DNA of 57,567 nt from an uncultured bacterium (GTDB taxonomy: Bacteria > Patescibacteriota > Minisyncoccia > Phycocordibacterales > Zambryskibacteraceae). The notes below the pieces were generated by a model, which was not told where the DNA came from, did no database searches, and saw only the letters and a program-made list of their open reading frames with translations. Below are positions 8,875-49,157 of this stretch, piece after piece. The position numbers and the translations under genes are program-made. The DNA is taken from the NCBI GenBank assembly GCA_963789635.1, contig CAWBLF010000001.1:1-57567 (forward strand), written 5' to 3'. Position 1 is the stretch's first letter. The number at the start of each line of letters is the position of its first letter.

Positions 8875-9264
8875 TTACCATATATTGAAAAGCACTTCGC
8901 CACCGACTTTTTCTTTGCGCGCGTCTGCGCCGGTTAGAATACCCTTTGGAGTGGAGATGATGCTGTCGCCGTAGCCGTTTTTAACCTTACGAATATCACT
9001 TACTTGCTGGTATACACGACGAGACGGCTTGGAAACACGTTTTACTCCTGCAATTTTTGGGGTACGACCATCATAAACCAATTCAACTTCAATAAATTTT
9101 GTAACTTTTTTGCCTTTCTTGGTGACAGACTTGATGTATCCGTGATTTTGAAGAATAACGCAAATTTCATATTTAAGTTTGGAATACGGGATGATGACCG
9201 ACTCTTTTTGAGCGGCCGTACCATTCTGTATACGGATAATCATGTCTGAAATTGGATCGGTCAT
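8875..9264 (-). CDS. rpsH: 30S ribosomal protein S8
   Basis: MTDPISDMIIRIQNG... and GGEVLFNIW C-terminus match S8. Confidence 0.9.
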   Translation of the reverse strand: MTDPISDMIIRIQNGTAAQKESVIIPYSKLKYEICVILQNHGYIKSVTKKGKKVTKFIEVELVYDGRTPKIAGVKRVSKPSRRVYQQVSDIRKVKNGYGDSIISTPKGILTGADARKEKVGGEVLFNIW

Positions 9265-9356
9265 TGAATTAGTTTAAAAGTTTGGAAGTTTTTAAGTTTG
9301 GATTCGTTTGTTTGAGTATTTAACTTTCAAACTTACCAACTTTTCAAATTTGAGCT

Positions 9357-9542
9357 TTACCAGCTTGATTTTTTTATGCCGGGAATCTTGCCTTCGTTGG
9401 CAAATTCACGGAAACAAATACGACATAGGTCAAAATCTCGCATATAGCCATGCTTTCGACCACAGCGAAAACAACGATTAACAGCCCGAGTAGAGAACTT
9501 CGGGGTTTTCTTTGATCTTGCGATGACTGATGTTTTTGCCAT
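9357..9542 (-). CDS. rpsZ: 30S ribosomal protein S14, type Z (zinc-binding)
   Basis: 61 aa with CxxC...CxxC (CFRCGRKHG...CRICFRE). Confidence 0.9.
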
Positions 9543-9642
9543 GCGATTGATTTTCTTGAACGGAGCGATTAGAAAATCATCGTCCTAAGCCCGTTGGGGC
9601 GAAGGAGGACTGATTTGCTTTAACCTACTCCTTAGGTTATCT

Positions 9643-9665
9643 AACAAAAAAGCTTCAACGAAGCT
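9643..9665 (-). terminator. terminator-like hairpin plus U-run inside the rplE-rpsZ spacer
   Basis: Minus strand reads agcttc-guu-gaagct followed by uuuuuguu. It lies in a 275-nt spacer that is normally absent from spc operons. Confidence 0.4.
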
Positions 9666-9817
9666 AGGGTCTCATCCTAACAAGACCGTTTGGCATTGTC
9701 AAATATAGATTTTTTACCAAAGCACTTGAAAAAATACCTATAATTTTGGTGTTTTCCGACGTTTATGGCCATCCATTTGCAATCAAGTTAGACAAGACCT
9801 AATGACCTCAAAAACCG

Positions 9818-10381
9818 CTATCTTTTCTTTTTTTCAGTGTCCTCTTTTTTAAACGGAAAACCTAGCTCATCAAGAAACGCCTTGAGCTCATCCTTGGATT
9901 TTGCTGTAGTAACGACGGTAACCGCCAAACCGAATACATCTTTGAGGTCTTCATCCGATGTTTCCGGAAAAATCGTATGCTCACGAATGCCAAGCGTGTA
10001 GTTGCCCATTGAGTCAAAAGAAGTATTGGAAATGCCACGAAAATCTTTGGTGCGTGGTAATGCGATGTTGATCAACTTATCCAAAAAATCATACATGCGT
10101 GCACCGCGAAGAGTGGTCTGAAGACCTACGGGATCACCTTGTCGTACTTTGAAGGCCGCTACGGATTGTTTGGCTCCTTTGCGCGCAGACTTTTGCCCGG
10201 TAATTTTGGCGAGCCTGTCTTCCGCCAAATCAATCTTTTTCTTATCCTTAAACGAACCGACACCGGCCGAAATAACAACCTTTTGAATTTTGGGACTTTG
10301 CATAACATTTTTGTATCCCCTCTTATCCTTGAGAGATTTGTATGCGTCTTTCGCTTTTTCTTTTGTTGATTTGGTTGCCAT
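9818..10381 (-). CDS. rplE: 50S ribosomal protein L5
   Basis: 187-aa ORF with L5 blocks (PKIQKVVISAGVG, GMRGARMYDFLDKLINIALPR). Confidence 0.9.
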   Translation of the reverse strand: MATKSTKEKAKDAYKSLKDKRGYKNVMQSPKIQKVVISAGVGSFKDKKKIDLAEDRLAKITGQKSARKGAKQSVAAFKVRQGDPVGLQTTLRGARMYDFLDKLINIALPRTKDFRGISNTSFDSMGNYTLGIREHTIFPETSDEDLKDVFGLAVTVVTTAKSKDELKAFLDELGFPFKKEDTEKKKR

Positions 10382-10495
10382 CCCGATATAAAAATTTTAT
10401 TAATGAATTGCTGGTCTATCCTACTCGTTTTGAAGCTTTTGTCTACTTATTACACGTGAAATTTGTGCAATCTAACGTTATCCGGAATTAGATTA

Positions 10496-10804
10496 CTATG
10501 AAATTTCTGTTTTACTTTTTACCGCCACGCGGATACTTTTGTTGCCTTTCAATTCATGTCGAACTCTGGTTCCCTTGCCGGTCTTCGGATCAACCAGCTG
10601 GACGTTCGACACGTTAACAGGAAAAGCCTGCTCAAGAATCTGGCCTTTTTCATTGGTCTTGTTCGCCTTCTTGTGAATTTTTTTGATATTAACACTTGCG
10701 ACAACTACACTGTTTTGTTTTGGCAAAGCTCGAATAACCTTACCAGTCTTCCCCCGATCTTTTCCCGAAAGCACTACGACATTATCACCTTTTTTAATAT
10801 ACAT
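10496..10804 (-). CDS. rplX: 50S ribosomal protein L24
   Basis: MYIKKGDNVVVLSGKDRGKTGKV (KOW motif). The upstream part of the 156-aa ORF overlaps rplN and was trimmed to ATG 10804. Confidence 0.9.
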   Translation of the reverse strand: MYIKKGDNVVVLSGKDRGKTGKVIRALPKQNSVVVASVNIKKIHKKANKTNEKGQILEQAFPVNVSNVQLVDPKTGKGTRVRHELKGNKSIRVAVKSKTEIS

Positions 10805-10820
10805 AAATATTGATGAATGA

Positions 10821-11192
10821 CTAAACGACCTCTGGCGCCAAAGAAATAATCGGTTGAAAACCCATTTCACCGAGTTCCCGCGGAATCGGACCAAAGACGC
10901 GCCCGGCGATGGGCTCGTGCTTCGCTTTGTCCACGATAATAACGGCATTCTCATCAAAACGCACATATGAGCCGTCGGCTCTACGAAACGGGAATTTTTG
11001 TCTGGCCACTACGGCGTAAAGAATATCTTTTTTCTTGACCGCTTTTCGTGGTTGGGCCACCTGGACGGAAAGAACCACAATGTCCCCGATTTGGGCATAT
11101 CGTTTTTTGGAACCACCGAGCACTTTGAATATGCGTCCGATTTTTGCTCCGGAATTATCTGCGATTTTTACGATGGAACGTGGTTGAATCAT
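10821..11192 (-). CDS. rplN: 50S ribosomal protein L14
   Basis: MIQPRSIVKIADNSGAK... matches L14. Start trimmed to ATG 11192. Confidence 0.9.
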   Translation of the reverse strand: MIQPRSIVKIADNSGAKIGRIFKVLGGSKKRYAQIGDIVVLSVQVAQPRKAVKKKDILYAVVARQKFPFRRADGSYVRFDENAVIIVDKAKHEPIAGRVFGPIPRELGEMGFQPIISLAPEVV

Positions 11193-11202
11193 AATACGAA
11201 TG

Positions 11203-11502
11203 TTATAAATTGTTTTCGCTTCTGTCTGCGTTAGTTTCGCGTCTGTCTGCGACAACAACGAAGTGCTTGTTTTTTGAAATTGGTTTGGTTTCTCTTATAG
11301 TCACTTTCTCGCCGACGACACGAGCATTGCCAACATCGTGAACTTGATACCGCTTTCGACGTTGAATAAATTTTTTGTATCTTGGGTGCTCAACGAAGCG
11401 CTCGACAGCGACAACGATGGTGTCCTTCATTTTGGTCGAAACCACTACTCCTTTAAGGGTTTTTGATCGTGGAATTTTTTGTTGTGACGCTTTTGTATTC
11501 AT
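11203..11502 (-). CDS. rpsQ: 30S ribosomal protein S17
   Basis: LKGVVVSTKMKDTIVVAVERFVEHPRYKK matches S17. Start trimmed to ATG 11502, just after the rpmC stop at 11507. Confidence 0.9.
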   Translation of the reverse strand: MNTKASQQKIPRSKTLKGVVVSTKMKDTIVVAVERFVEHPRYKKFIQRRKRYQVHDVGNARVVGEKVTIRETKPISKNKHFVVVADRRETNADRSENNL

Positions 11503-11506
11503 ATAA

Positions 11507-11692
11507 TTACTTCTTTCTGCGCGACAACTCCGTTTGAACACGGGCTATCTCGCGACGCAAACCCCTGCCTTCTCTGACATTACGATTTTTACTTCCGGCA
11601 ATTCCAAAACGAAAATTTTTCAAGTTTTCCATTTTTTCAATGAGAAGCTTGTTTAAATCCTTGTCTTCTTTTGTTTGAATATCCTTGGTCAT
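11507..11692 (-). CDS. rpmC: 50S ribosomal protein L29
   Basis: 61-aa helical basic ORF between rplP and rpsQ (NLKNFRFGIAGSKNRNV...). Confidence 0.85.
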   Translation of the reverse strand: MTKDIQTKEDKDLNKLLIEKMENLKNFRFGIAGSKNRNVREGRGLRREIARVQTELSRRKK

Positions 11693-11701
11693 AATGAATT
11701 A

Positions 11702-12121
11702 TTATGTTCGAGCGACCACTTTGGTCTTGACCGGGAGCTTTGTTCCTCCTTTTCGCAAGGCCTCTCTGGCTTCCACTTCCGGTAATCCGTCAACTTCAAA
11801 AATAACTCTGCCCGGAAGAACAGCCGCCACGTAGCCGGCCAAATCTCCTTTACCCTTACCCAATTTAACTTCGGCAGGCTTCTGAGTATACGGCATGTCA
11901 GGAAAAATGCGAATCCAAACTTTGCCGGTCTTTCCGACTGACCTTGATATGGCTTTACGGGCTGCTTCAATCTGATTTGAACGAATGCGTCCGGACGCCA
12001 AGGACTTGAGCCCATACGAACCAAAAGCCACTGTAGTGCCACGAGAAGCCACGCCGACCTTGAGAGGGTTCTTGCGCATGGTTTGCCATTTTCGATATTT
12101 TACTTTTTTGGGTAGCAACAT
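11702..12121 (-). CDS. rplP: 50S ribosomal protein L16
   Basis: MLLPKKVKYRKWQ... and GKGKGDLAGYVAAVLPGRVIFEV match L16. Confidence 0.9.
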   Translation of the reverse strand: MLLPKKVKYRKWQTMRKNPLKVGVASRGTTVAFGSYGLKSLASGRIRSNQIEAARKAISRSVGKTGKVWIRIFPDMPYTQKPAEVKLGKGKGDLAGYVAAVLPGRVIFEVDGLPEVEAREALRKGGTKLPVKTKVVART

Positions 12122-12287
12122 GTTATTGATTTTTAAAAAACGAAGTGATTATAAAAATCATCATCCCTCCCCACATTTAACAATGACCATAAATGACCAT
12201 TGGAAGTTTGCTTTGTCATACTATTCTTTTTTTTAAAATTTGATTTCATGTTTAAAAGTGGAGCGGGATGCTCAATAAAAATAGTCG
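12122..12287 (-). promoter_or_regulatory. structured intergenic element, copy 1 (rpsC-rplP spacer)
   Basis: 166-nt spacer. Hairpin A is 12127-12135/12152-12160. The long-range stem pairs 12162-12180 with 12251-12270. Both ends are homologous to the 12960-13128 spacer. Confidence 0.7.
12133..12249 (-). CDS. candidate 38-codon small ORF inside spacer copy 1
   Basis: ATG 12249..TAA 12133 reads MKSNFKKKNSMTKQTSNGHLWSLLNVGRDDDFYNHFVF. It has the same length, frame position and termini as the ORF at 12971-13087. Confidence 0.3.
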   Translation of the reverse strand: MKSNFKKKNSMTKQTSNGHLWSLLNVGRDDDFYNHFVF

Positions 12288-12959
12288 CTATACTTCTTTT
12301 TTATTGGCAAAAATCTCACCGCGGTAAATCCATACTTTGATACCCAAGTGTCCATATGGAAGTTTGGCTTCGTAGTGAGCATAATCCACGTCGGCTCGAA
12401 ACGTCTGAAGAGGAATCTGTCCCATCTTCCTGGTTTCGCTACGAGCTATGGATGAACCGGCCAATCTCCCTCCTATGAAAATCTTTACTCCTTTGACATC
12501 GCGATTTGCCATAACCTTTTCGACCATCTGTTTGATGACTCTTCTATAGGGCAAACGCTTTTCCAAACCCTCGGCGACCATCTGAGCGACGATTAATGCA
12601 TTTGATTCTGGTGATTTGAGTTCACGAATATCAAGTTTGACTTCCTCTTTTCCGCTGTATACCCCGCGTTTTTTCATCATTCTGACAATTTCATCCTTTA
12701 GTTTTACGGCGCCGTCGCCACTGCGACCAATAATCATACCGGGGCGTGATGTCTCAACGATAATGCGAAGCATTTTTTCATTACGTTCAATTTCAATACT
12801 GCTGACATACATGCCTCGCAATTTCTTTTCCAAAAATGAACGGATAACGAGATCACCACGAAGAAAAGACTTGTACTTATCTTTCGCGCCGAACCAACGA
12901 GATTTCCAATCTCTGATTATGCCTAGTCTATGTGAATATGGGTGGACTGTGTGGGTCAT
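12288..12959 (-). CDS. rpsC: 30S ribosomal protein S3
   Basis: 223-aa ORF with the KH domain and S3 C-terminal blocks (GIIRDWKSRWF, GRLAGSSIARSE). Confidence 0.9.
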   Translation of the reverse strand: MTHTVHPYSHRLGIIRDWKSRWFGAKDKYKSFLRGDLVIRSFLEKKLRGMYVSSIEIERNEKMLRIIVETSRPGMIIGRSGDGAVKLKDEIVRMMKKRGVYSGKEEVKLDIRELKSPESNALIVAQMVAEGLEKRLPYRRVIKQMVEKVMANRDVKGVKIFIGGRLAGSSIARSETRKMGQIPLQTFRADVDYAHYEAKLPYGHLGIKVWIYRGEIFANKKEV

Positions 12960-13128
12960 GTGGCTGATTTTTAACGAGCGGAGCGAGTATTAAAATCGCC
13001 ATCCAGCTCCACTTTTAATGCAAACTTCATGTGATTACTGAAAGTGTGCTGTGCTAGCATATCATTTTTTATAAAATGTGATTTCATGTTTAAAAGTGGG
13101 GCTGGATACTCAAAAAATATATTGTTCA
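12960..13128 (-). promoter_or_regulatory. structured intergenic element, copy 2 (rplV-rpsC spacer)
   Basis: 169-nt spacer. Hairpin A is 12966-12974/12990-12997. The long-range stem pairs 13001-13018 with 13090-13107. It is a paralogue of 12122-12287. Confidence 0.7.
12971..13087 (-). CDS. candidate 38-codon small ORF inside spacer copy 2
   Basis: ATG 13087..TAA 12971 reads MKSHFIKNDMLAQHTFSNHMKFALKVELDGDFNTRSAR. It is a paralogue of the 12133-12249 ORF. Confidence 0.3.
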   Translation of the reverse strand: MKSHFIKNDMLAQHTFSNHMKFALKVELDGDFNTRSAR

Positions 13129-13506
13129 TTATTTTTTGGTAGCTTTTAGTTTTTTTTCTTTCTTTGCTTTTGATTCTTTTGTTTCAAGCACAAGCATAAT
13201 GTGGCTTGTACGCTTGTGAATGGACGGCGCACGGCCACGGGAAGCGGAACGTCGTCGGTATAAAATTGCGCCACCATCAACACGAATTTCCTTAATATAC
13301 AAATTATCGGTTTCAATCGCTTTGTCTTTGGCGTTTGCAATGGCCGAAGCAATAAGCTTGCCTAAAGGGTTGGACGAGCGTTTTGCGATGAAACCCAGTT
13401 TGGTCAAAGCTAGATTGGCGTTTTGTCCACGCAACTCTCTTGCCACAAGTCTCACCTTTCTGGGCGATTGACGATAATCATTGAGTTGTGCGGTTACTGT
13501 AGACAT
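13129..13506 (-). CDS. rplV: 50S ribosomal protein L22 (Lys-rich C-terminal tail)
   Basis: SPRKVRLVARELRGQNANLAL and RRRSASRGRAPSIHKRTSHI match L22. Confidence 0.9.
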   Translation of the reverse strand: MSTVTAQLNDYRQSPRKVRLVARELRGQNANLALTKLGFIAKRSSNPLGKLIASAIANAKDKAIETDNLYIKEIRVDGGAILYRRRSASRGRAPSIHKRTSHIMLVLETKESKAKKEKKLKATKK

Positions 13507-13520
13507 AAAATAATATTAAA

Positions 13521-13880
13521 CTACTTTTTTGGAGCCGCTGTTGTAGACCCTGCGGTGGCAGCTTTGGCCGACTGAGCTGCCGCGATTTCGGATTCTTTCT
13601 TTGCTTGTTCAATTTCCTTTTGCATTTTACCGCCGTGTTTTATGAATTTACGGGTCGGTGAAAATTCTCCCAGTCTGTGACCCACCATGTCTTCGGACAC
13701 AAAAACCTCTATGTGGTCTTTGCCGTTGTGGACACCGAAGGTAAATCCCACCATTTCAGGTGCTATCTGGCTTGCTCGTGACCAAGTCTTAATGACACTT
13801 GAGGTACCGGCTTTCTGCCCCTCAATTTTCTTGAGAAGTCTTTCGTCAACATATGGTCCTTTTTTACTTGATCGTGTCAT
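13521..13880 (-). CDS. rpsS: 30S ribosomal protein S19 (about 27-aa Ala/Lys-rich C-terminal extension)
   Basis: [19 protein letters not shown]... and [13 protein letters not shown] match S19. Confidence 0.9.
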
Positions 13881-14053
13881 TGCCAGACTAAATTTTCTTA
13901 TAAAATCGCTAAACCAATTGGTTCTGCCTATTCTATCCCCTCGTATTTAACTCGGTAAATAAAATTATTTTTGGTTGGTGAACATAAAAAGCCCACGAAG
14001 AGCTTGGCCGAATACTAGCAAAATATCCAGTATTGTCAAATGAGATAGCCTTG

Positions 14054-14911
14054 TTACTTCTTCCCCACCTTCCTTCTTCGAACGATGTAAACGTTTGAAT
14101 ATTTTTTCGGTCGACGAGATTTTTGACCCTTGCCTGTTGGTCGGCCGGTGCGTGTTTTTTGTCGACGGCTGCCACGTCCGCTACGGCCTTCACCTCCACC
14201 GTGCGGATGGTCTACCGGGTTCATCGCTGTTCCTCTCACGGTAGGACGAATACCCAGCCAACGAGAACGGCCGGCTTTACCAAGATTTACCAGACGGTTC
14301 TCATCATTGGAAACTTCACCCAACGTAGCAAAACAATTTTCACTGACTTTACGAATTTCCGACGAAGGCATCTTGAGGTCAACCTTACCCGCGTCTTTGG
14401 CTACAACTTCAATGTAGTTACCTGCAGAGCGTCCGAGCTTACCACCTCCATGGGGTTTGACTTCCACATTGTATACAAATGTTCCCAACGGAATATTTTT
14501 TAATGGCAGACGATTACCCGGTGTTTGCGGAGCGGATTCACCTGTCATCAATACGTCTCCAACTTTAACTCCTTTGGGTAACAACACGTAACGCTTTTCT
14601 CCGTCACGATAAACTGCAAGACCGATAAAACCTGTGCGATTTGGGTCATACTCCACACTTGAAATGGTGTAGGGGATGTTCAATTTGTCATACATAAAAT
14701 CAATTTCACGAAACAAACGCTTGTGTCCTCCCCCTTTGTGCGAAGTGGTGATGCGACCGTGGTGATTGCGTCCCATTTTACGGCTAAAACCTGTCGTTAA
14801 AGACTTGTGAGGATTTTGCTCGGTAACAATCTTCGAATAGTGAATCGAAGTCATGTTGCGTCGCGATTTTGTTGTCGGTTTGTAGTGTTTCATTTTTTTA
14901 TACAAATTCAA
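14054..14911 (-). CDS. rplB: 50S ribosomal protein L2
   Basis: GRNHHGRITTSHKGGGHKR and RGTAMNPVDHPHGGGEGR match L2. Confidence 0.95.
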   Translation of the reverse strand: MNLYKKMKHYKPTTKSRRNMTSIHYSKIVTEQNPHKSLTTGFSRKMGRNHHGRITTSHKGGGHKRLFREIDFMYDKLNIPYTISSVEYDPNRTGFIGLAVYRDGEKRYVLLPKGVKVGDVLMTGESAPQTPGNRLPLKNIPLGTFVYNVEVKPHGGGKLGRSAGNYIEVVAKDAGKVDLKMPSSEIRKVSENCFATLGEVSNDENRLVNLGKAGRSRWLGIRPTVRGTAMNPVDHPHGGGEGRSGRGSRRQKTRTGRPTGKGQKSRRPKKYSNVYIVRRRKVGKK

Positions 14912-15242
14912 TCTTGTCTCCTTTCTTCAAATAGACAAGCGCTTTTTTGCCACCCGCGCGAAATCCTTTTTTGCCACGCGAAATAGTATTCTTCCTTGGT
15001 ATAGTAACGATACTGACCTTTGTCGGAGTAACTTTGTAACTTTCGACCACAGCGTCATGAATTTGTGATTTTGTTGACGATGGTATCACATTGAAAATAT
15101 AAACATTATCATTCATGGCCTTATCCGAAGCTTTTTCGGTAATACGCGGGCTTAAAAGAATGTGAGTAAGGTGATGCATGCCGGGAACTTTTTCGGTTTT
15201 TGAAACTTCTTTTGATTCTTTTGAAACTTTTTTTATAGCCAT
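14898..15242 (-). CDS. rplW: 50S ribosomal protein L23 (N-terminal extension)
   Basis: ILLSPRITEKASD... and KKALVYLKKGDKIE match L23. Located between rplD and rplB. Confidence 0.85.
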   Translation of the reverse strand: MAIKKVSKESKEVSKTEKVPGMHHLTHILLSPRITEKASDKAMNDNVYIFNVIPSSTKSQIHDAVVESYKVTPTKVSIVTIPRKNTISRGKKGFRAGGKKALVYLKKGDKIEFV

Positions 15243-15252
15243 AAAAATATCC

Positions 15253-16047
15253 TTATTTAACGGTCTTTTTTGTCTTACTTGGTTTGGTAGCTTTGGCTTT
15301 TATTTTGACGGAAGCTGTGGCTTTTCTCGTCGCCCGAACCGGCTTGGACGAAACAATCGCATCAGAAGTCTTGTTTTCAAGCGGTGTCTTCACTTTTGAC
15401 TCCAAAAGGGCGATAGCCTCTTTTGATCCGACCAAAACAATACCTTTGTACTGCAAAAGCATTAGTGGATTAAGATTTCTTACCTCATCTACGGTGACAG
15501 TTTCAATATTGCGAAGACTTCGGACAACACTTTCATCGCGAGTAGCGAGAGCAATCAAAAGAGCGTTGCCCTTTTTTTCAAATGAAGGAAAATTCTTTAT
15601 TTCTTTGCTGAGCAAAGAAAGTGTGGAAACCGCCATTTTGGTCTTCGCGTCATTTATGGAAAGCGAATCAATAAAAAATATCTCACCATCGCGAAATTTT
15701 CTGGAAAGGATGGTGTAAAGAGCCTTGGCTTTCATGCCACGACCCACTTTACGGGCATAATTTTTATCGTTGCGTGGGCCGTGAGTTACACCTCCACCTA
15801 CCCATATTGGTGAGCGAGTAGAGCCGTGTCGCGCTCGGCCGGTACCCTTCTGTTGCCAAGGTTTTTTGCCTCCTCCACTCACCTCACCTCTTGTTTTGGC
15901 ATGGGCGATAGTTTGTCTGGCATTCGATGCCATGGACACAGCGACTTGGTGGACCAAATCGGAATTCCAACGTAAACCAAAAACATGTTCTGGAAGTGTG
16001 ATCTTTCCTGTCTCTACTCCTTTTTGGTTGTACACTACTGATTCCAT
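15253..16047 (-). CDS. rplD: 50S ribosomal protein L4 (about 50-aa Lys-rich C-terminal extension)
   Basis: GGGKKPWQQKGTGRARHGSTRSPIWVGGGVTHGP matches L4. Confidence 0.9.
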   Translation of the reverse strand: MESVVYNQKGVETGKITLPEHVFGLRWNSDLVHQVAVSMASNARQTIAHAKTRGEVSGGGKKPWQQKGTGRARHGSTRSPIWVGGGVTHGPRNDKNYARKVGRGMKAKALYTILSRKFRDGEIFFIDSLSINDAKTKMAVSTLSLLSKEIKNFPSFEKKGNALLIALATRDESVVRSLRNIETVTVDEVRNLNPLMLLQYKGIVLVGSKEAIALLESKVKTPLENKTSDAIVSSKPVRATRKATASVKIKAKATKPSKTKKTVK

Positions 16048-16083
16048 GTTTTATTTGAAATTATCAATCGGTTTTCAAGATTC

Positions 16084-16701
16084 TTAATTTTTTCCCCTTA
16101 TTTCCACAAGCGTGCCACGACGACCCGGTACTGCACCAGAAACCAAAATGAGATTGTCTTCAGGATTGATTTGGATCACCTTAAGATTCTTCACCGTGAT
16201 GCGATCACTGCCCATTCGGCCACCCATACGCATTCCTTTTGGCACTTTGTTACGCAAACCTCCTCCAATAGAACCCGGCTCACGTTCGGAGTGCTTTTGA
16301 CCGTGGCTTCTTGGGCCTCCTTTGAAACCGTGACGCTTAACAACACCCTGGAACCCTTTTCCTTTTGAGGTGGCAGAAACAGAAACCACGTCTCCCTCAG
16401 CGAAAGAAGAGACGTCGATAGTACTTCCCAGTTCAGGGGTTGGGTCTTCATTACCGACGCGAAACTCTCTGACGGTGGCAAAAGAACCTTTGCCGGCGAA
16501 ATGCCCCTTTAGAGATTTTGTGAGATTCTTCTCTTTTTTCTTACCAAACCCCAATTGTACGGCTTTGTAGCCATCACGAGCCGGGTCTTTGATTGCAGTA
16601 ACGACCTGTTTGTCTGAGGTTAATACTGTCACAGCAGTAACCCGGCCTTCACTGTCGAAGACCTGAGTCATGCTATGCTTTTTTGCCAAAAGAAATTTCA
16701 T
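16084..16701 (-). CDS. rplC: 50S ribosomal protein L3
   Basis: GKGFQGVVKRHGFKGGPRSHG matches L3. Confidence 0.9.
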   Translation of the reverse strand: MKFLLAKKHSMTQVFDSEGRVTAVTVLTSDKQVVTAIKDPARDGYKAVQLGFGKKKEKNLTKSLKGHFAGKGSFATVREFRVGNEDPTPELGSTIDVSSFAEGDVVSVSATSKGKGFQGVVKRHGFKGGPRSHGQKHSEREPGSIGGGLRNKVPKGMRMGGRMGSDRITVKNLKVIQINPEDNLILVSGAVPGRRGTLVEIRGKN

Positions 16702-16860
16702 CTCGTTACAAAAACTTTAATATATCGAATTGCTTGCCTATCCTAATGATTTTTGACTTTTTGTCTACCCTGACTAGAACAAACCCCCCGTTGAGATTTC
16801 GTACGGGACAAAAAGATTTTCTTCTCTATTCCCTATTCATTATTACCTATTCGTTTCGTA

Positions 16861-17268
16861 TTACATCAACTTCACATCAATATTCACTCCGGACGGAAGA
16901 GAAAGGTTTGTTAGCGACTCGATTAGTTTTGGTGTCGGGTTAACAATGTCAATCAATCGCTTATGAATCCTCATCTCAAACTGCTCTCGCGCATTTTTGT
17001 AGACGAAGGAAGCTCGATTGACCGTATACTTTTTGATTTCTGTAGGCAGAGGAATCGGCCCCAGAACTTGCGCATCATAACGCATAGCTGTATCCATGAT
17101 TTGTTTGACCGAAAGATCAAGAATCTTGTACTCGTAAGCGCGCACACGAATACGCAGACGTGACACGGATATCTCCTTGGAAACTTTTGGCGCTCTGGCG
17201 ACTTTCGCCGTTGCTGTGACTTTGGATTTCTTTGGTGCGCTCTTTTTTGTTGTAGTTTCTTTAGCCAT
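16861..17268 (-). CDS. rpsJ: 30S ribosomal protein S10 (about 35-aa Lys/Ala-rich N-terminal extension)
   Basis: [15 protein letters not shown]... and [18 protein letters not shown] match S10. ATG at 17268 preferred over TTG at 17274. Confidence 0.9.
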
Positions 17269-17332
17269 AATCAATTTGCAATGAACGACTTACAATGGAA
17301 CAAATTTTGTTCTTTATCCTTTATATTTGTGT

Positions 17333-18541
17333 TTATGCGGTAATCTTCGTCACCACTCCTGCGCCAACAGTCTTACCTCCTTCGCGGATGGCAAAACGCT
17401 GTTGGTCTTCAAGAGCAATAGGCGAAACGAGTTTTACTTTAAAGGTAACAGTGTCACCAGGCATTACCATTTCTACCCCCTCTTTGAGAGTAACTTCTCC
17501 GGTCACATCAGTGGTTCGGATATAGAATTGTGGCTTGTAACCGGTGAAGAATGGTGTGTGTCTTCCCCCTTCTTCCTTTTTCAACACATAAACTTCTGAT
17601 TCAAATTCAGTGTGAGGAGTAACTGAACCAGGTTTTGCAAGAACTTGTCCGCGAGTAATGTCTTCTTTTTTAAGACCTCGGACCAAGATACCGGCGTTAT
17701 CTCCGGCCATACCACTGTCGAGAGACTTGTTGAACATTTCAATGCCGGTAACAACTGTCTTGGCCGTAGGCTTTAGACCCACAACCTCGACTTCTTCACC
17801 TACTTTGACGGTGCCTCGTTCAATTCTTCCGGTAACCACAGTCCCTCGTCCTTCGATAGAAAAGATGTCTTCTACCGGCATGAGGAATGGCTTATCAACT
17901 TCGCGGACCGGGTTTGGAATAAAGGTGTCAAGAGTTTTTACAAGCTCCATAACCTTCAGTGCCCACTCATCATCCGCAGATTTTGATTCCAAAGCCTTAA
18001 GACCCGAGCCTCGAATGATAGGGGCGTTTGCACCATCAAAACCCTGCTTGGTGAGAAGTTCGCGTATTTCTTCTTCCACAAGGTCAATAAGTTCCTTGTC
18101 GGGAACCATGTCGCATTTGTTTAGGAAAACAATGACTTTTGGCACACCTACTTGTTTGGCAAGGAGGATGTGTTCACGAGTCTGTGGCATAACACCGTCG
18201 GTAGCAGCCACCACCAACACCGCGCCATCCATTTGTGCGGCTCCGGTAATCATGTTTTTTATGTAGTCAGCGTGTCCTGGAGCGTCGATGTGCGCATAGT
18301 GACGATCGGGAGTCCAGTATTCGGAGTGGTGAAGCGCAATAGTAATTCCACGAGCCTTTTCTTCGGGAGCACTGTCAATCTTGTCGACGGCTTCAACGCG
18401 AGCACCATAACCCTTATCCTTGTTCATATCAAGGACGTGAAGGATGGAGGCTGTCAAAGTCGTTTTGCCGTGGTCAACGTGGCCGATAGTACCCACATTC
18501 ACGTGAGGCTTGGAACGATCAAATTTTGTTTGTTCTGCCAT
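17333..18541 (-). CDS. tuf: elongation factor Tu
   Basis: 402-aa ORF with [18 protein letters not shown] and NKCD G-motifs, intact throughout. Confidence 0.97.
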
Positions 18542-42900: not shown

Positions 42901-43868
42901 GAACAAACTTCCGTATAAGTCGTTGTGGAACCGGGATTGACCACGACTGACCCCGACAGAGCGGTTGAACCGCCGTTCCAAGAATTACTGCTACACGATG
43001 TCGCTCCGCTGGAACTCCACGAAATTGTGGACGAACCGCCGGAGGTGACGCTCGAAGGAGAAGCGGTAACTGTCACAGTCGGGACACTGCCGGAACACGA
43101 GCCTCCCACCGCGTCGGAAGCGGAAACTGAAACTGATGCACTACCTGTCTTTCCACTACTACTATTTGTACAGGTTATTGAATAACTTAAAGGACTGGTG
43201 GCAGGATGAACAAGTTGGCTTCCCGACACCGCTGTAGAAGCGGTCCACGGAGCGGAACAGGAAGTGGCATTACTTGAAGACCACGTCAGAGTGGTGCCCG
43301 CACTGCATGAAAATGGGTTTGGTGAAGCGGAAAGAGTTGCAGTGACGTTAGGAGATGTAGGTAGTAAGTACCAATTAATCATGTAGTTGTCGCTATCCCC
43401 TGGAAAAACAATTAATGATGTTGGCGTTACGGTTGTCCCAGTCACCTGATACCCGCTGGGGGCGGTCAGTGGATTAATACACTCGGATATTCCGCTGGAG
43501 GTCGGATATAACGTATAAGGTGAAGTCGTATGACCTGTGCAAGATTGCCAAGTTCCTCCCATGGGGTTTTGAGTCACGGATACAGAAGCCGAAGCCGTAA
43601 AAGTCACGGTCTGGCTGGCTACCGCTATCTGGCTTGGGGCTGATGGTGGATATTGTGGACAACCAAGTGTCCCCGGCCATGCGTCGTTTGTTGAATATAC
43701 TGTGATACCGCCATCACAGCTAAGCTGATAAACAGTAAGCGTGTATGATTCGCTGTCGGAGGAGGCAGTGGTGCTCCAAGTTCCACTCAGTGTTCCGGGA
43801 GTATAAGTGCCTCCTTGCGTATTGCTCAATGAAGCCATGGGACAACCACTACTAAATGACCATGCCAC
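39969..43868 (-). CDS. giant Thr/Ser/Gly-rich repeat surface protein, main reading frame (1299 aa)
   Basis: Ig-like tandem repeats (..TVTASPSSVTSGGS.TI.WSSSGATSCS..), a central glycine-rich block (IEVIGGGGGGSDF...GGNGASGVIVITY) and further repeats. Continues upstream into 43894-44269 after a frame break. Confidence 0.8.
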   Translation of the reverse strand: MAWSFSSGCPMASLSNTQGGTYTPGTLSGTWSTTASSDSESYTLTVYQLSCDGGITVYSTNDAWPGTLGCPQYPPSAPSQIAVASQTVTFTASASVSVTQNPMGGTWQSCTGHTTSPYTLYPTSSGISECINPLTAPSGYQVTGTTVTPTSLIVFPGDSDNYMINWYLLPTSPNVTATLSASPNPFSCSAGTTLTWSSSNATSCSAPWTASTAVSGSQLVHPATSPLSYSITCTNSSSGKTGSASVSVSASDAVGGSCSGSVPTVTVTASPSSVTSGGSSTISWSSSGATSCSSNSWNGGSTALSGSVVVNPGSTTTYTEVCSNANGSNSGSAMLTVTAGSVPTVTVSASPSSVTSGGSTTITWSSSGATSCSTDAWSGSTALSGSVTVYPGSTTTYTKVCSNANGNGSGSGTVTVTASGGGFDFGISNSGTISIAQGSSGSETIPLTVLSGTSQPVTITASGAPANVTFTYTNQGCSPACNSLVNFTVGASATYGTYPITVTGTANSAGAAKTIILTSGTGWTVPSDWNNSSNKIEVIGGGGGGSDFSYYSDVGGGGGAYAKVSNVTLSPGGYIPITIGAGGTGGQSSSVNATAGGNTTFNNTTVGAGGGQPGLNSFSGGNLVGGTGGTVLYGTGYSGGNGGNSDSINTNYTDAGGGGGAAGPNGPGQAGGAPAGQACGAGGAGDAGSGGATVSSVINFSGYCVGAIGNNGTEWGTAGSGSGASGPGSNNNGTGAYNNGSNGGLYGGGGSGSNSGFSTKGGNGASGVIVITYSPATTITHSTSFTLNVTCASGSTWNGTSCVANAVPTVTTPTATTITTTSALLGANVTSLGSPAVISARGTCWGTTTSPTTNCVPEGGTVTGTYSQSRTGMTPGTLYYYRGYATNSAGTGYSPTATFTTTALPTGTLTPLNPTCTIASGANSCAQTLTWTTTNPIGTSQVTSPSGTPSPITSNNGSQSFSAPYNPSGVNFYLYNNGTILAQTNVSTVCVSGTAWSGSACTAGGTMAGTLTPLNPTCTIASGASSCTQSLTWTTTNPVATSAVTSPTGTPSPSNGNNGSQNFTVPYNSSGVNFFLYNNSLLLAQTNVTTSCASGSSWNGISCSTYSYSLSPNQGTLVVAQGGSQQQETIAVTLNSGSTQGVILSISGAPANLAYNYANNGCNPTCNIFINITAPSSVATGNYPITVNGTSGGVNKSTSFNLNVTAPTSLTVTPSVSPTAYVGNSVSWQFIVTGGTGPYTYTCSGTDFPSPPPASGSFSITYQTVGTKTATCTVKDSLGNTGSASASVQVVINPAFKEF
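40555..41165 (-). repeat. two ~300-nt tandem coding repeats (GTLTPLNPTCTIASGA... modules)
   Basis: Protein segments TLTPLNPTCTIASGANSCAQTLTWTTTNP... and TLTPLNPTCTIASGASSCTQSLTWTTTNP... are consecutive. Coordinates approximate. Confidence 0.6.
41560..42310 (-). other. glycine-rich domain region of the giant protein
   Basis: WTVPSDW..IEVIGGGGGG..GGGGAY..VTLSPGGYIPITIGAGGTGG..AGGGGGAAGPNG..GASGVIVITY pattern. Coordinates approximate. Confidence 0.6.
42600..43090 (-). repeat. two ~243-nt tandem coding repeats (Ig-like SSVTSGGS.TI.WSSSGATSCS modules)
   Basis: Near-identical DNA blocks, e.g. cgatgtcgctccgctggaactcca...gaaccgccggaagtgacgct at about 42758 and about 43000. Coordinates approximate. 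Confidence 0.6.
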
Positions 43869-43893
43869 CGAAACATTGGTGGGAATTGACCCG

Positions 43894-44269
43894 CTACTTG
43901 GGAGTTACGGAAAGACTGTTTATAACACAGGATGGCGGGGCAGGTGCAGATACTGTCACCGAAACACTGCTCAAAACTGGGTCACCTGAGGTGTCCATGC
44001 ATGTCATTCTGTAGGTTGTAGTGGAAGGAGGTTGAACAGATTGACTCCCCGATGTTGCAGTAGAACCCGTCCAGCTGGCCGAACATGAGGATGCCTGAAG
44101 ATTAGTTCCGGACCATGTGATGGTGGATGACCCGCCGTTTGTACTTATGGTATTGGGACTTGCCGTCAGATTTAAGGTTCCTGTAGCGGCAAACACGTTA
44201 TTTGATGCCATTGTCAAAAATCCCAAAACAGCAATCAAAACAAAAAGGGTCCAAAGTAGTTTTTTTCAT
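43894..44269 (-). CDS. N-terminal fragment of the giant surface protein (signal peptide plus first Ig-like module), frame-broken at both ends
   Basis: ATG 44269 followed by A7. With A6 it would read MKKLLWTLFVLIAVLGFLTMASNNVFA (a signal peptide). The ORF ends at TAG 43894, and the +1 frame continues SSGSIPTNVSVAWSF into the 1299-aa ORF. Confidence 0.65.
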
Positions 44270-47647: not shown

Positions 47648-47900
47648 GTTATGAGTAATGGTTCGCCTTCACGGGCGGGCCATTATTCTTAAGTTTAGAA
47701 AAATAAGGAGCTTGGCGACCATATTTTTGTTAACCCAGCACCAATTTTGCTAAATAGATAATGTGCGCAGTACGTGGCTGAATAAGCCCTCCGATTATGG
47801 GCGAAGTGCTGCGCCATTAGAGGTTTGTGGCTATTCGCCACTCGCGCTTCGCGTGGTATTGTAAATGCAAAATTGGTGCTTGGGTGCTGAATTTTATTAT
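47648..47900 (+). ncRNA. unclassified structured RNA / long 5' leader upstream of nusA
   Basis: 11-bp hairpin 47657-47667/47674-47684. 18-bp closing stem 47733-47750/47867-47885 (one bulge) enclosing about 115 nt with several sub-hairpins. No credible ORF. Confidence 0.5.
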
Positions 47901-47924
47901 TCATTAATATTCATAAAAATTCGT

Positions 47925-49157
47925 ATGTTTGATTTAAAAGTTATAAATTCCGTTCTTGAACAACTCGAACAAGAACGTGGAATACCGAAAGAAAAAATTA
48001 TAGAAGCCATTGAGATGGCTCTGGCTACCGCGTATAAAAAAGAATACGGCAAACGTGGCCAGATTGTCCGTGCCAAATTTGACCTAAATACAGGCAAAAC
48101 CGAATTTTACCAGGTAAAAATCGTCGTTGACGACAGCCGAGTCATCATTACCGATGATGATGAGGCATTCGAACGTGTCGAGGGAGATGAGCGAATTTTC
48201 TACAATCCGGAACATCACATCCTTATTGATGACGCCCGTAAAATGAAACGTGACGTCGCTCTTGATGAAGAAATTTCTTTCCCTCTGGAAAGCAAAGGTG
48301 ACTTCGGACGCATCGCCTCTCAAACGGCAAAACAAGTCATTATGCAAAAAATTCGTGAAGCGGAAAAGACCAGTGTAATGGGCGAATACGGTTCTCGCGA
48401 AGGAGAGATAGTCACCGGCACGGTGCAGAGGATAGAACGTGGAAATATTTTTATTGATATGCACAGAGCACCTGGCATCTTGCCATATGAAGAACAAATT
48501 CCAGGTGAACATTTTGCTCAAGGCGAAAGAGTGCGCGCCTACTTGTACAGAGTGGAGGAAACTCCTCGCGGAATCTTTTTGCGACTTTCGCGTTCTCACC
48601 CAAAATTTCTGGAAAAATTGTTCGCCCAAGAGGCTCCTGAGGTGGCAAACGGCCTGGTAGAAATCAAAGCTATCGCTCGTGAAGCCGGTTACCGTTCAAA
48701 AGTGGCGGCGTTCTCAAAAGACGAGCATGTTGATCCGGTGGGATCTATGGTCGGCCAACGTGGCGTGCGAGTTTCTACCATTACCAGTGAACTTGGTGGT
48801 GAAAAAATAGATATCATCGAATGGTCTCCCGATCCGAAGAAATTTATTGAAGACGCCCTATCCCCTGCCAAAATTCTTTCAGTTATTACAAACGACGAAA
48901 TGCACGAGGCTAGAGTGGAGGTTTCTGAAGACCAGCAATCGTTAGCTATCGGCCGTGGAGGACAAAATGTCCGCCTAGCCGCCAAACTGACCGGGTGGAA
49001 AATTGATATTCAATCGGTCAAAGGCGAAAACTTGGCCGAAGCCAGTCCCGATGAGACTCCGTCTTCACCGGAAACGAAAATCCGTACCGAAAACGACAAC
49101 GAAGCCCAAACAGCGGACATTTCTGACGCTATTCCTTCCACTGAAAACACCGGTTAA
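47925..49157 (+). CDS. nusA: transcription termination/antitermination factor NusA
   Basis: N-terminal domain, S1 and two KH domains (GTVQRIERGNIFIDM, DPVGSMVGQRGVRV, AIGRGGQNVRLAAKLTGWKIDI). Start at ATG 47925. Confidence 0.9.
   Translation: MFDLKVINSVLEQLEQERGIPKEKIIEAIEMALATAYKKEYGKRGQIVRAKFDLNTGKTEFYQVKIVVDDSRVIITDDDEAFERVEGDERIFYNPEHHILIDDARKMKRDVALDEEISFPLESKGDFGRIASQTAKQVIMQKIREAEKTSVMGEYGSREGEIVTGTVQRIERGNIFIDMHRAPGILPYEEQIPGEHFAQGERVRAYLYRVEETPRGIFLRLSRSHPKFLEKLFAQEAPEVANGLVEIKAIAREAGYRSKVAAFSKDEHVDPVGSMVGQRGVRVSTITSELGGEKIDIIEWSPDPKKFIEDALSPAKILSVITNDEMHEARVEVSEDQQSLAIGRGGQNVRLAAKLTGWKIDIQSVKGENLAEASPDETPSSPETKIRTENDNEAQTADISDAIPSTENTG

Follow-up and report, generated by a model that had tools for sequence, protein, structure and literature searches.

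A structured intergenic repeat with a 38-codon open reading frame on both sides of rpsC in a Patescibacteriota genome

We describe an inserted, structured intergenic element and the 38-codon open reading frame (ORF) that it carries, from the ribosomal-protein operon of an uncultured bacterium of the family Zambryskibacteraceae (Patescibacteriota). The DNA analyzed is a stretch of 57,567 nt (positions 1 to 57,567 of contig CAWBLF010000001.1, assembly GCA_963789635.1), hereafter called the window. The spacers flanking rpsC are two diverged copies of the element, one inserted into the rplV-rpsC junction (spacer A) and the other into the rpsC-rplP junction (spacer B) of this genome, and the family to which they belong is dispersed in one order of Patescibacteria (Paceibacteria/Nomurabacteria-type metagenome-assembled genomes, MAGs). 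Each copy contains a long helix (P1) followed by a hairpin next to the downstream start codon (P2), and both helices are supported by covariation. The frames that run through these structures are most likely a selected, translated feature of the inserted repeat, a reading drawn from sequence comparison.

Two elements flanking rpsC

The features of the locus are given below. R1 denotes a covariance model of the whole element and R2 a model of P2 only.

13129..13506, minus strand: rplV (L22), 5' of spacer A (ORF list; Pfam Ribosomal_L22, E 6.8e-28)
12960..13128, minus strand: spacer A, 169 nt, the P1-P2 element inserted between rplV and rpsC (paralogue of spacer B; R1 168 bits)
13090..13107, minus strand: P1 5' arm, copy A (minimum free energy fold, consensus structure, pair counts)
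12971..13087, minus strand: 38-codon ORF A, ATG 13087 to TAA 12971 (ORF list, translation)
13001..13018, minus strand: P1 3' arm, copy A, within ORF A (minimum free energy fold, consensus structure, pair counts)
12962..13000, minus strand: P2 start-proximal hairpin, copy A, holding the ORF A stop codon TAA at 12971-12973 (R2 65.8 bits, E 6e-14; covariation, 70 sequences)
12288..12959, minus strand: rpsC (S3), between the two elements, ATG at 12959 (Pfam Ribosomal_S3_C, KH_2)
12122..12287, minus strand: spacer B, 166 nt, the P1-P2 element inserted between rpsC and rplP (paralogue of spacer A; R1 163 bits)
12252..12269, minus strand: P1 5' arm, copy B (fold, consensus structure, pair counts)
12133..12249, minus strand: 38-codon ORF B, ATG 12249 to TAA 12133 (ORF list, translation)
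12163..12180, minus strand: P1 3' arm, copy B, within ORF B (fold, consensus structure, pair counts)
12124..12162, minus strand: P2 start-proximal hairpin, copy B, holding the ORF B stop codon TAA at 12133-12135 (R2 60 bits, E 2e-12; covariation)
11702..12121, minus strand: rplP (L16), 3' of spacer B, ATG at 12121 (Pfam Ribosomal_L16, E 4e-44)

The two spacers are insertions, because the same junctions are very short in 15 of 16 family relatives, which have no such spacers there. The rplV-rpsC junction measures -4 to 36 nt in all 16, and the rpsC-rplP junction measures 5-30 nt in 14 of them, the exceptions being G016 and G014; in the four genomes of the same genus, these junctions are 6-30 nt long and lack the element. 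In G016, rpsC and rplP are separated by a 168-nt element of the same design, with a 40-codon ORF of the same layout. The corresponding region of G014 (contig 7, ~43718-44226, locus L022) holds an additional ORF of ~122 codons that starts MSERFQGYRFEK. The 'empty' rpsC-rplP junction of G018 (locus L027) reads TAA-AAATCAACC-ATG, which equals the P2 3' arm and its tail; the P2 3' arm may be derived from, or may imitate, a native short coupling spacer of this kind.

Spacers A and B are paralogues, identical in 118 of 169 aligned columns (74% by BLAST over 157 nt). The initial annotation had drawn attention to a 38-codon ORF of equal length and placement in each of them, and translation confirmed both ORFs, their peptides and the residues that they share (T15, H19, L24, V26 and D29-x-D31-F32). 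The equal length and placement are not independent observations, because the two spacers descend from one ancestor. Each stop codon lies within the 3' arm of P2, as had been noted, 11 nt upstream of the next AUG (rpsC for ORF A, rplP for ORF B). ORF A also has a longer in-frame form of 52 codons, beginning at ATG 13129 and overlapping the rplV stop codon as TAATG; the 52-residue product is a called protein (P0001) in the representative protein library. ORF B begins with an ATG at the very entry of the P1 loop, 38 nt past the rpsC stop codon.

Each spacer is predicted to fold into a P1 helix of 17-19 bp that closes a loop of ~70 nt, with the P2 hairpin immediately after it, at folding energies of -33.1 and -39.2 kcal/mol (z-scores -2.2 and -4.2). 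The P2 helix is made up of a GAUUUUUA/UAAAAAUC core and three covarying foot pairs, and its foot lies 2-4 nt from the AUG. The ORF begins at the entry of the loop, in an A/U-rich region without conserved pairing, and extends across the loop, the 3' arm of P1 and the P2 hairpin, where the UAA of the P2 3' arm serves as its stop codon. At its 5' end, straight after the upstream stop codon, the element carries a degenerate, inverted P2-like box.

Covariation was scored for P2 in 70 sequences, collected with a search pattern that leaves the five variable pairs unfixed. Paired cells amounted to 93.8%, and 117 cells had changed on both sides as opposed to 42 in shuffled alignments, with none of 500 shuffles reaching the observed number; when the 3' partners were slid by 1-3 columns, pairing was 36-55%. 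In the eight full-length copies of the subtype with a 38-codon ORF, 93.4% of cells were paired (39-50% in the same sliding control) and 13 of the 32 pairs showed changes in both partners. Taken separately, P1 was 94% paired with six such pairs, and P2 92.5% paired with seven. The orientation of the element relative to the downstream gene is constant.

A search of positions 9000-18000 against Rfam, with E values up to 1, gave no relevant match and a single chance match to a long non-coding RNA. Two candidate functions of the spacers were rejected. A terminator-promoter cassette was sought by scanning positions 11600-13600 for sigma-70 promoters and intrinsic terminators; neither spacer contained a G+C-rich hairpin with a U run or properly spaced sigma-70-type hexamers, and counts over the region did not exceed those in shuffled sequence. 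A switch in which the 5' box pairs with the P2 of its own element was also discarded, the boxes resembling the family consensus and not the complement of their own partner.

A dispersed family and its open frames

Parts of spacers A and B match other loci in related genomes. Of 86 family genomes, 23 contain places recognized by R1; there are 64 of these, 65-205 nt long, and at several of them the model matched both strands. With R2, 8-9 copies of P2 were found in the present genome, two of them in the window beyond spacers A and B; across the order, P2 was found in 46 of 151 sampled genomes at 1-16 copies each, and a sample of 151 genomes from the whole phylum gave only three with P2. When one genome per species was scanned with a pattern, the motif appeared in MAGs labelled Nomurabacteria, Paceibacterota, Tagabacteria and Taylorbacteria, as well as Campbellbacteria, Yonathbacteria and Adlerbacteria. 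Literature searches found no published description of the motif. P2 abuts the ATG of many unrelated genes, among which L16, S3, L6, L20, an amidotransferase and a T2SS-F/PilC-like protein were confirmed by Pfam; judging from their N-termini, the genes preceded by P2 also appear to include YebC, Fpg, GroEL, DnaK, S19, S7, L35 and others. The distance from the TAA of P2 to the ATG is 9 nt in 63 of 91 elements and 11 nt in 16.

The P1 loop of family members ranges from 3 to ~250 nt with a peak at 60-69 nt and a second class at 110-119 nt that contains a nested G+C-rich palindrome. At none of 123 P2 sites did a convincing P1 stem close more than 260 nt, and full-length forms carrying a small nuclease gene found no support there. 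A second ORF-bearing subtype, ~200 nt long, carries ORFs of 42-51 codons, which are longer when counted from upstream in-frame ATGs, and precedes rplP, rplF, rplX and dnaK. In this subtype (loci L048, L053, L061 and L090; L109 and L140), the palindrome nested in the P1 loop is ~45 nt long and occurs in either orientation, the frame being open both ways (ORFs of 49-51 codons).

The two other copies in the window depart from this plan. At 9542-9586 (minus strand), a third P2 (R2 31 bits, E 7e-5) abuts the ATG at 9541 in the 275-nt spacer between rplE and rpsZ; it has a variant stem, GAUUUUCU/AAGAAAAUC, lacks the TAA and follows a short G+C-rich hairpin on its 5' side. Positions 47700-47930 (plus strand) hold a degenerate full element that no ORF spans: the 5' box is present, P1 has 19 bp, G+C-rich palindromes are nested in the 114-nt loop, and P2 is weak (24 bits). 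The product encoded downstream of it starts MFDLKVINSVLEQL, and orthologues of this gene have the element in at least five other genomes. On contig 3 of the same genome, two opposed copies of P2, at 127358-127404 (minus strand) and 127436-127477 (plus strand), lie ~30 nt apart, as if one palindromic element served two divergent genes.

The frame itself was examined in copies that had been found without regard to it. Searches with DNA and RNA models, which are blind to reading frame, yielded six copies of the 38-codon subtype, namely the two in the window and those of G003 (before an amidotransferase gene), G018 (before rplT), G014 (before a pilC-like gene) and G363 (rpsH-rplF), and all six are open over exactly 38 codons. 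When 1.84 billion representative proteins were searched exhaustively with a profile, only about five relevant clusters were returned. Two of these were copies already found (the 52-residue product of this window and the copy of G014), and three were new, with the same 38 residues from the conserved Met, at rpsC-rplP, at rpsQ-rplN and before rplF. In total, start, frame, stop and 38-codon length are kept in nine of nine copies from several genera and loci. Six of the nine are situated in junctions of the S10/spc region (rplV-rpsC, rpsC-rplP twice, rpsH-rplF twice and rpsQ-rplN), and two have an in-frame ATG that overlaps the upstream stop codon.

Several lines of evidence suggest that this degree of openness is greater than chance would give. 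The eight copies available as DNA align without gaps over 157 nt despite ~48% divergence in the loop, the ATG at the loop entry is invariant in the subtype, and the other two frames contain 0-4 stop codons in every copy. When loops were shuffled, the probability of being open in the ORF frame was 0.08-0.16 per copy, and a star-tree simulation of neutral divergence gave a joint probability of ~1e-3 for five copies all being open. A wider test took elements with loops of 45-120 nt and asked for an ATG no more than 30 nt from the loop entry and a stop-free path to the P1 3' arm. These requirements were satisfied by 21 of 53 elements in the frame that ends at the TAA of P2, and by three and one in the other two frames; counted by clusters of similar loops, the excess was 11 of 40 vs. 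three and one (Fisher p = 9e-4). When no start codon was required, the excess of stop-free loops by cluster was not significant (8 of 32 vs. three and four, p = 0.13). From these comparisons, the frames appear to be kept open by selection.

There is no amino-acid constraint on the peptide. The ratio of non-synonymous to synonymous differences (pN/pS) averages 0.94 in the ORF frame and 0.82-0.83 in shifted control frames, and lies between 0.77 and 1.51 in a subtype with ORFs of 50 codons. Loop variation in the eight copies is 0.477, 0.477 and 0.468 at codon positions 1, 2 and 3, and pairwise differences between copies are likewise spread evenly over codon positions. Neither the 38- nor the 52-residue product had a Pfam match above the cut-off. 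A few residues recur across copies (M1, K2, K7, L24 and D31). The P1 3' arm and P2, which are conserved also in copies that have no ORF, determine the final ~15 codons and the TAA, and it is only this tail that peptides of the different subtypes (28-51 residues) share. The initial annotation had proposed that syntenic spacers of relatives be searched and purifying selection assessed, and the outcome is mixed: the spacers are absent from all but one of the 16 relatives and the residues are unconstrained, but the frame is retained at other loci.

Translation through the element and its alternatives

We consider the chances about even that the ORF is a bridging mini-cistron, on which ribosomes would melt P1 and P2 and be handed to the next gene. 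Ribosomes translating the mini-cistron would unwind both structures, terminate beside the next start codon (the stop codon lies 9-11 nt before the AUG) and reinitiate there, so that rpsC and rplP would stay translationally coupled across a structured insert of ~165 nt. Selection would in that case fall on the act of translation (start, frame, stop and length) and not on the peptide. Both the translation of the ORF and the subsequent reinitiation are inferred steps. As coupling would have it, the stop codon is ~10 nt from the AUG (9 or 11 nt in 79 of 91 elements) and the ORF spans the structured region. The relay reading would account for start, frame and stop being kept while residues drift, for the convergence of several unrelated loop types on one frame, for the occurrence of the 38-codon subtype mainly in S10/spc junctions, and for the in-frame ATG that overlaps the upstream stop codon in two copies.

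The setting of the host is compatible with such a scheme. The initial annotation had found no Shine-Dalgarno (SD) sequence before the ORFs or the native genes, and indeed SD-like tetramers seldom occur in front of the 244 long ORFs inspected. In 72 of 452 long ORFs, a -10-like TAnnnT hexamer has its end 7-9 nt ahead of the A of the ATG, position -7 being sharply preferred. Promoters of leaderless genes in Actinobacteria and Deinococcus have this signature, and operon-first genes in this Patescibacterium are probably transcribed as leaderless mRNAs. A 16S rRNA gene, from which the anti-SD tail could be read, was not found in this 82%-complete assembly, and our literature search on SD or leaderless usage in Patescibacteria returned nothing. 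In family relatives, the spacing between internal cistrons is only -4 to 36 nt, which fits coupling of the reinitiation type.

Several observations weigh against the relay. About 60% of medium-sized elements and all short-loop elements lack an ORF, yet the genes that follow them are intact; neither the element nor downstream expression therefore depends on the ORF. A close upstream gene on the same strand is present for 12 of 14 ORF-bearing and 25 of 36 ORF-less elements, a difference that is not significant. The ATG of the ORF lies between 38 nt (spacer B) and 76 nt (other copies) past the upstream stop codon, which is far for simple reinitiation. In addition, an exact length of 38 codons is stricter than keeping a frame requires, and hints at a structural ruler instead. 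Relay does not explain the ORF-less majority, the fixed length or the distance of the ATG. Wobble counts are also contradictory on whether it is the mRNA strand that folds, with 18 G-U and 12 A-C combinations in P1 as opposed to 7 and 28 in P2, where 12 of the 28 A-C combinations occur at the apical pair.

Another explanation, which had been raised in the initial annotation, is that the repeat is a structured RNA or DNA and the frame an untranslated accident of conserved ends joined by an A-rich loop of fixed length. This explanation holds as far as the final ~15 codons and the stop codon are concerned, since P1 3' arm and P2 dictate them even where no ORF exists. It also agrees with the equal variation of the three codon positions and a pN/pS near 1, with the constancy of 157 nt in eight of eight DNA copies at ~48% loop divergence, a length constraint that goes beyond frame keeping, and with the lack of significance of the enrichment when a start codon is not demanded (p = 0.13). 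What it leaves unexplained is the open, ATG-started loop: the frame excess is significant once an ATG is required (11 of 40 clusters vs. three and one), all six copies found blind to frame are open where 8-16% of shuffled loops would be, the other frames collect 0-4 stop codons in every copy, and the ATG at the loop entry does not vary. On balance, we regard an accidental frame as doubtful.

Two further explanations give the ORF a product-dependent or regulatory role. As a leader peptide, it would let the progress or stalling of ribosomes switch the folding of P1 and P2 and so tune rpsC and rplP; in a variant of this idea, the near-constant C-terminus (G-D-F-Y-x-R...) or the length of 38 codons, about that of the exit tunnel, might influence the ribosome in cis. 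The retention of start, frame, stop and exact length in nine of nine copies, the overlap of the ORF with both structured modules, which translation must remodel, and the conserved C-terminal motif adjoining the stop codon are in keeping with regulation. However, the C-terminus is conserved because the same nucleotides covary as P1 and P2, so RNA pairing accounts for it fully. The downstream genes (L16, S3, L6, L14, L20, an amidotransferase and a pilus protein) are unrelated, and no common signal to which a leader could respond is evident; moreover, no covarying alternative pairing was found, and no covariation links the 5' box to the P2 that belongs to the same element. Regulation by a leader peptide is accordingly improbable in our view. 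More improbable still is a genuine microprotein, for example a ribosome-associated factor, in which the 38 residues would function themselves. Conservation of the frame in several genera, mostly within ribosomal-protein operons, and the few recurring residues speak for it. The initial annotation's suggestion of unannotated microproteins of the core ribosomal operon did not find support, however, given a pN/pS of ~1 with equal variation of codon positions, the lack of a Pfam match, the absence of the ORF from the same junctions in all four relatives of the same genus, and the yield of only about five clusters from 1.84 billion representative proteins. Most copies of the wider element family lack such a frame, and other subtypes encode unrelated peptides of 28-51 residues that have only the structure-encoded tail in common. 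The initial annotation's statement that the products do not resemble L36 or any other small ribosomal protein agrees with the Pfam result.

Origin of the element and related systems

Whatever the role of the frame, the element is structured, palindromic and probably mobile. One origin, compatible with any of the readings above, is that these are non-autonomous REPIN- or MITE-like repeats that fold as single-stranded DNA and are moved by a Y1 (IS200/RAYT-type) transposase; the position at the start codon would then reflect target choice and not function. We hold this origin tentatively, as possible but rather less than likely. With its inverted P2-like 5' box and with R1 matches on both strands, the element has a palindromic design that resembles a REPIN or MITE, and mobility would also fit the presence or absence of the element at the same junction among relatives, its patchy copy number (0-16 per genome) and the preponderance of A-C mismatches over G-U on the mRNA strand of P2. 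Of the 151 genomes from the order, 91 have genes with a Y1_Tnp domain, in up to 13 copies; the share is 37 of 46 where P2 is present vs. 54 of 105 where it is not (odds ratio 3.9, p = 0.001, relatedness being ignored). The present genome has one such IS200/RAYT-like gene outside the window (contig 1, 69438-70094, within a 238-codon open frame at 69378-70094, plus strand). Ahead of this gene lie a hairpin with GGTGGTG and a TATAAT box resembling the P1/P2 junction. Against this origin, the Y1 genes that were located are not flanked by elements, the nearest copies being 1-10 kb away, and G356 has 16 copies of P2 but no Y1 match. Comparison of filled and empty sites by eye showed no consistent target-site duplication, and the element fills the whole gap from stop to start codon. 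Furthermore, the same orthologous genes (YebC, Fpg, L20, L35, S7 and PilC, named from their N-termini) carry the element in many genera, suggesting long retention rather than random landing.

The element is best regarded as a variant of two known kinds, co-transcribed palindromic repeats and coupling mini-cistrons. The Correia elements of Neisseria (CREE/NEMIS) and the ERIC/IRU repeats of enterobacteria are likewise intergenic repeats of ~100-170 nt with long inverted ends, which are co-transcribed, form long hairpins, fall into several size classes and differ in presence between relatives. Unlike these, the element described here has a separately conserved, covarying, irregular 3' hairpin locked 2-4 nt from the start codon, has a low copy number of 1-16 per genome with no TA target-site duplication seen, and carries a conserved pass-through ORF in a subset of copies. 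REPINs consist of two inverted repeat units that form a hairpin, are inherited vertically and persist in small numbers (Bertels and Rainey, 2011, PMC3116915; PMC3337134). As in that system, the genome holds a gene for a Y1-like transposase, and across the order such genes show a statistical association with the repeat, relatedness again being ignored, whereas the Y1 genes here are unflanked by repeats, no GTAG or CGTC tag was recognized and a genome with many copies has no Y1 match. To our knowledge, REPINs are neither tied to start codons nor ORF-carrying.

Resemblances extend to systems of translational control. In termination-reinitiation coupling, terminating ribosomes can unfold the next initiation site and restart there, and in both natural coupling and engineered 'bicistronic design' leaders a short cistron passes through structure and stops ~10 nt from an AUG, as it does here; the present mini-cistron, whose translation is predicted, differs in belonging to a dispersed repeat and a host without SD sites. 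Rickettsia palindromic elements are also palindromic repeats of a reduced genome that are tolerated through in-frame translation, but they lie within genes of the host and are built into its proteins, unlike the intergenic element described here, which has start and stop codons of its own. Autoregulatory leaders of ribosomal-protein operons (S10/L4, spc/S8 and L20) and the small protein L36 are similar in their location, start-adjacent structured RNA or small size. The present element differs from them in having no Rfam match, no Pfam family and non-ribosomal genes among those downstream.

Taken together, a prospect that in our estimate falls a little short of an even chance is that a possibly selfish palindromic repeat, bringing its own ribosome-relay ORF, has settled in the tightest operon of a bacterium without SD sequences and with leaderless first cistrons. 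Start, frame, stop and 38-codon length would be selected, and not the peptide, and P2 would be an undescribed translation-initiation module found across an order of Patescibacteria. Little is known of how translation starts without SD sequences in the ultra-small bacteria of the CPR (candidate phyla radiation)/Patescibacteria, or of how internal genes of their long operons are expressed, and the locus offers two testable objects in this respect: a covarying hairpin locked to the start codon, which about one-third of the order's sampled genomes contain, and a natural set of S10/spc operon insertions with or without a pass-through frame. For annotation, frames of 38-66 codons proposed by gene callers at such positions, of which the 52-residue product is an example, should not be named conserved hypothetical proteins. 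If true, the relay would represent selection for translation itself rather than for its product, and would show how repeats can invade essential, coupled operons harmlessly.

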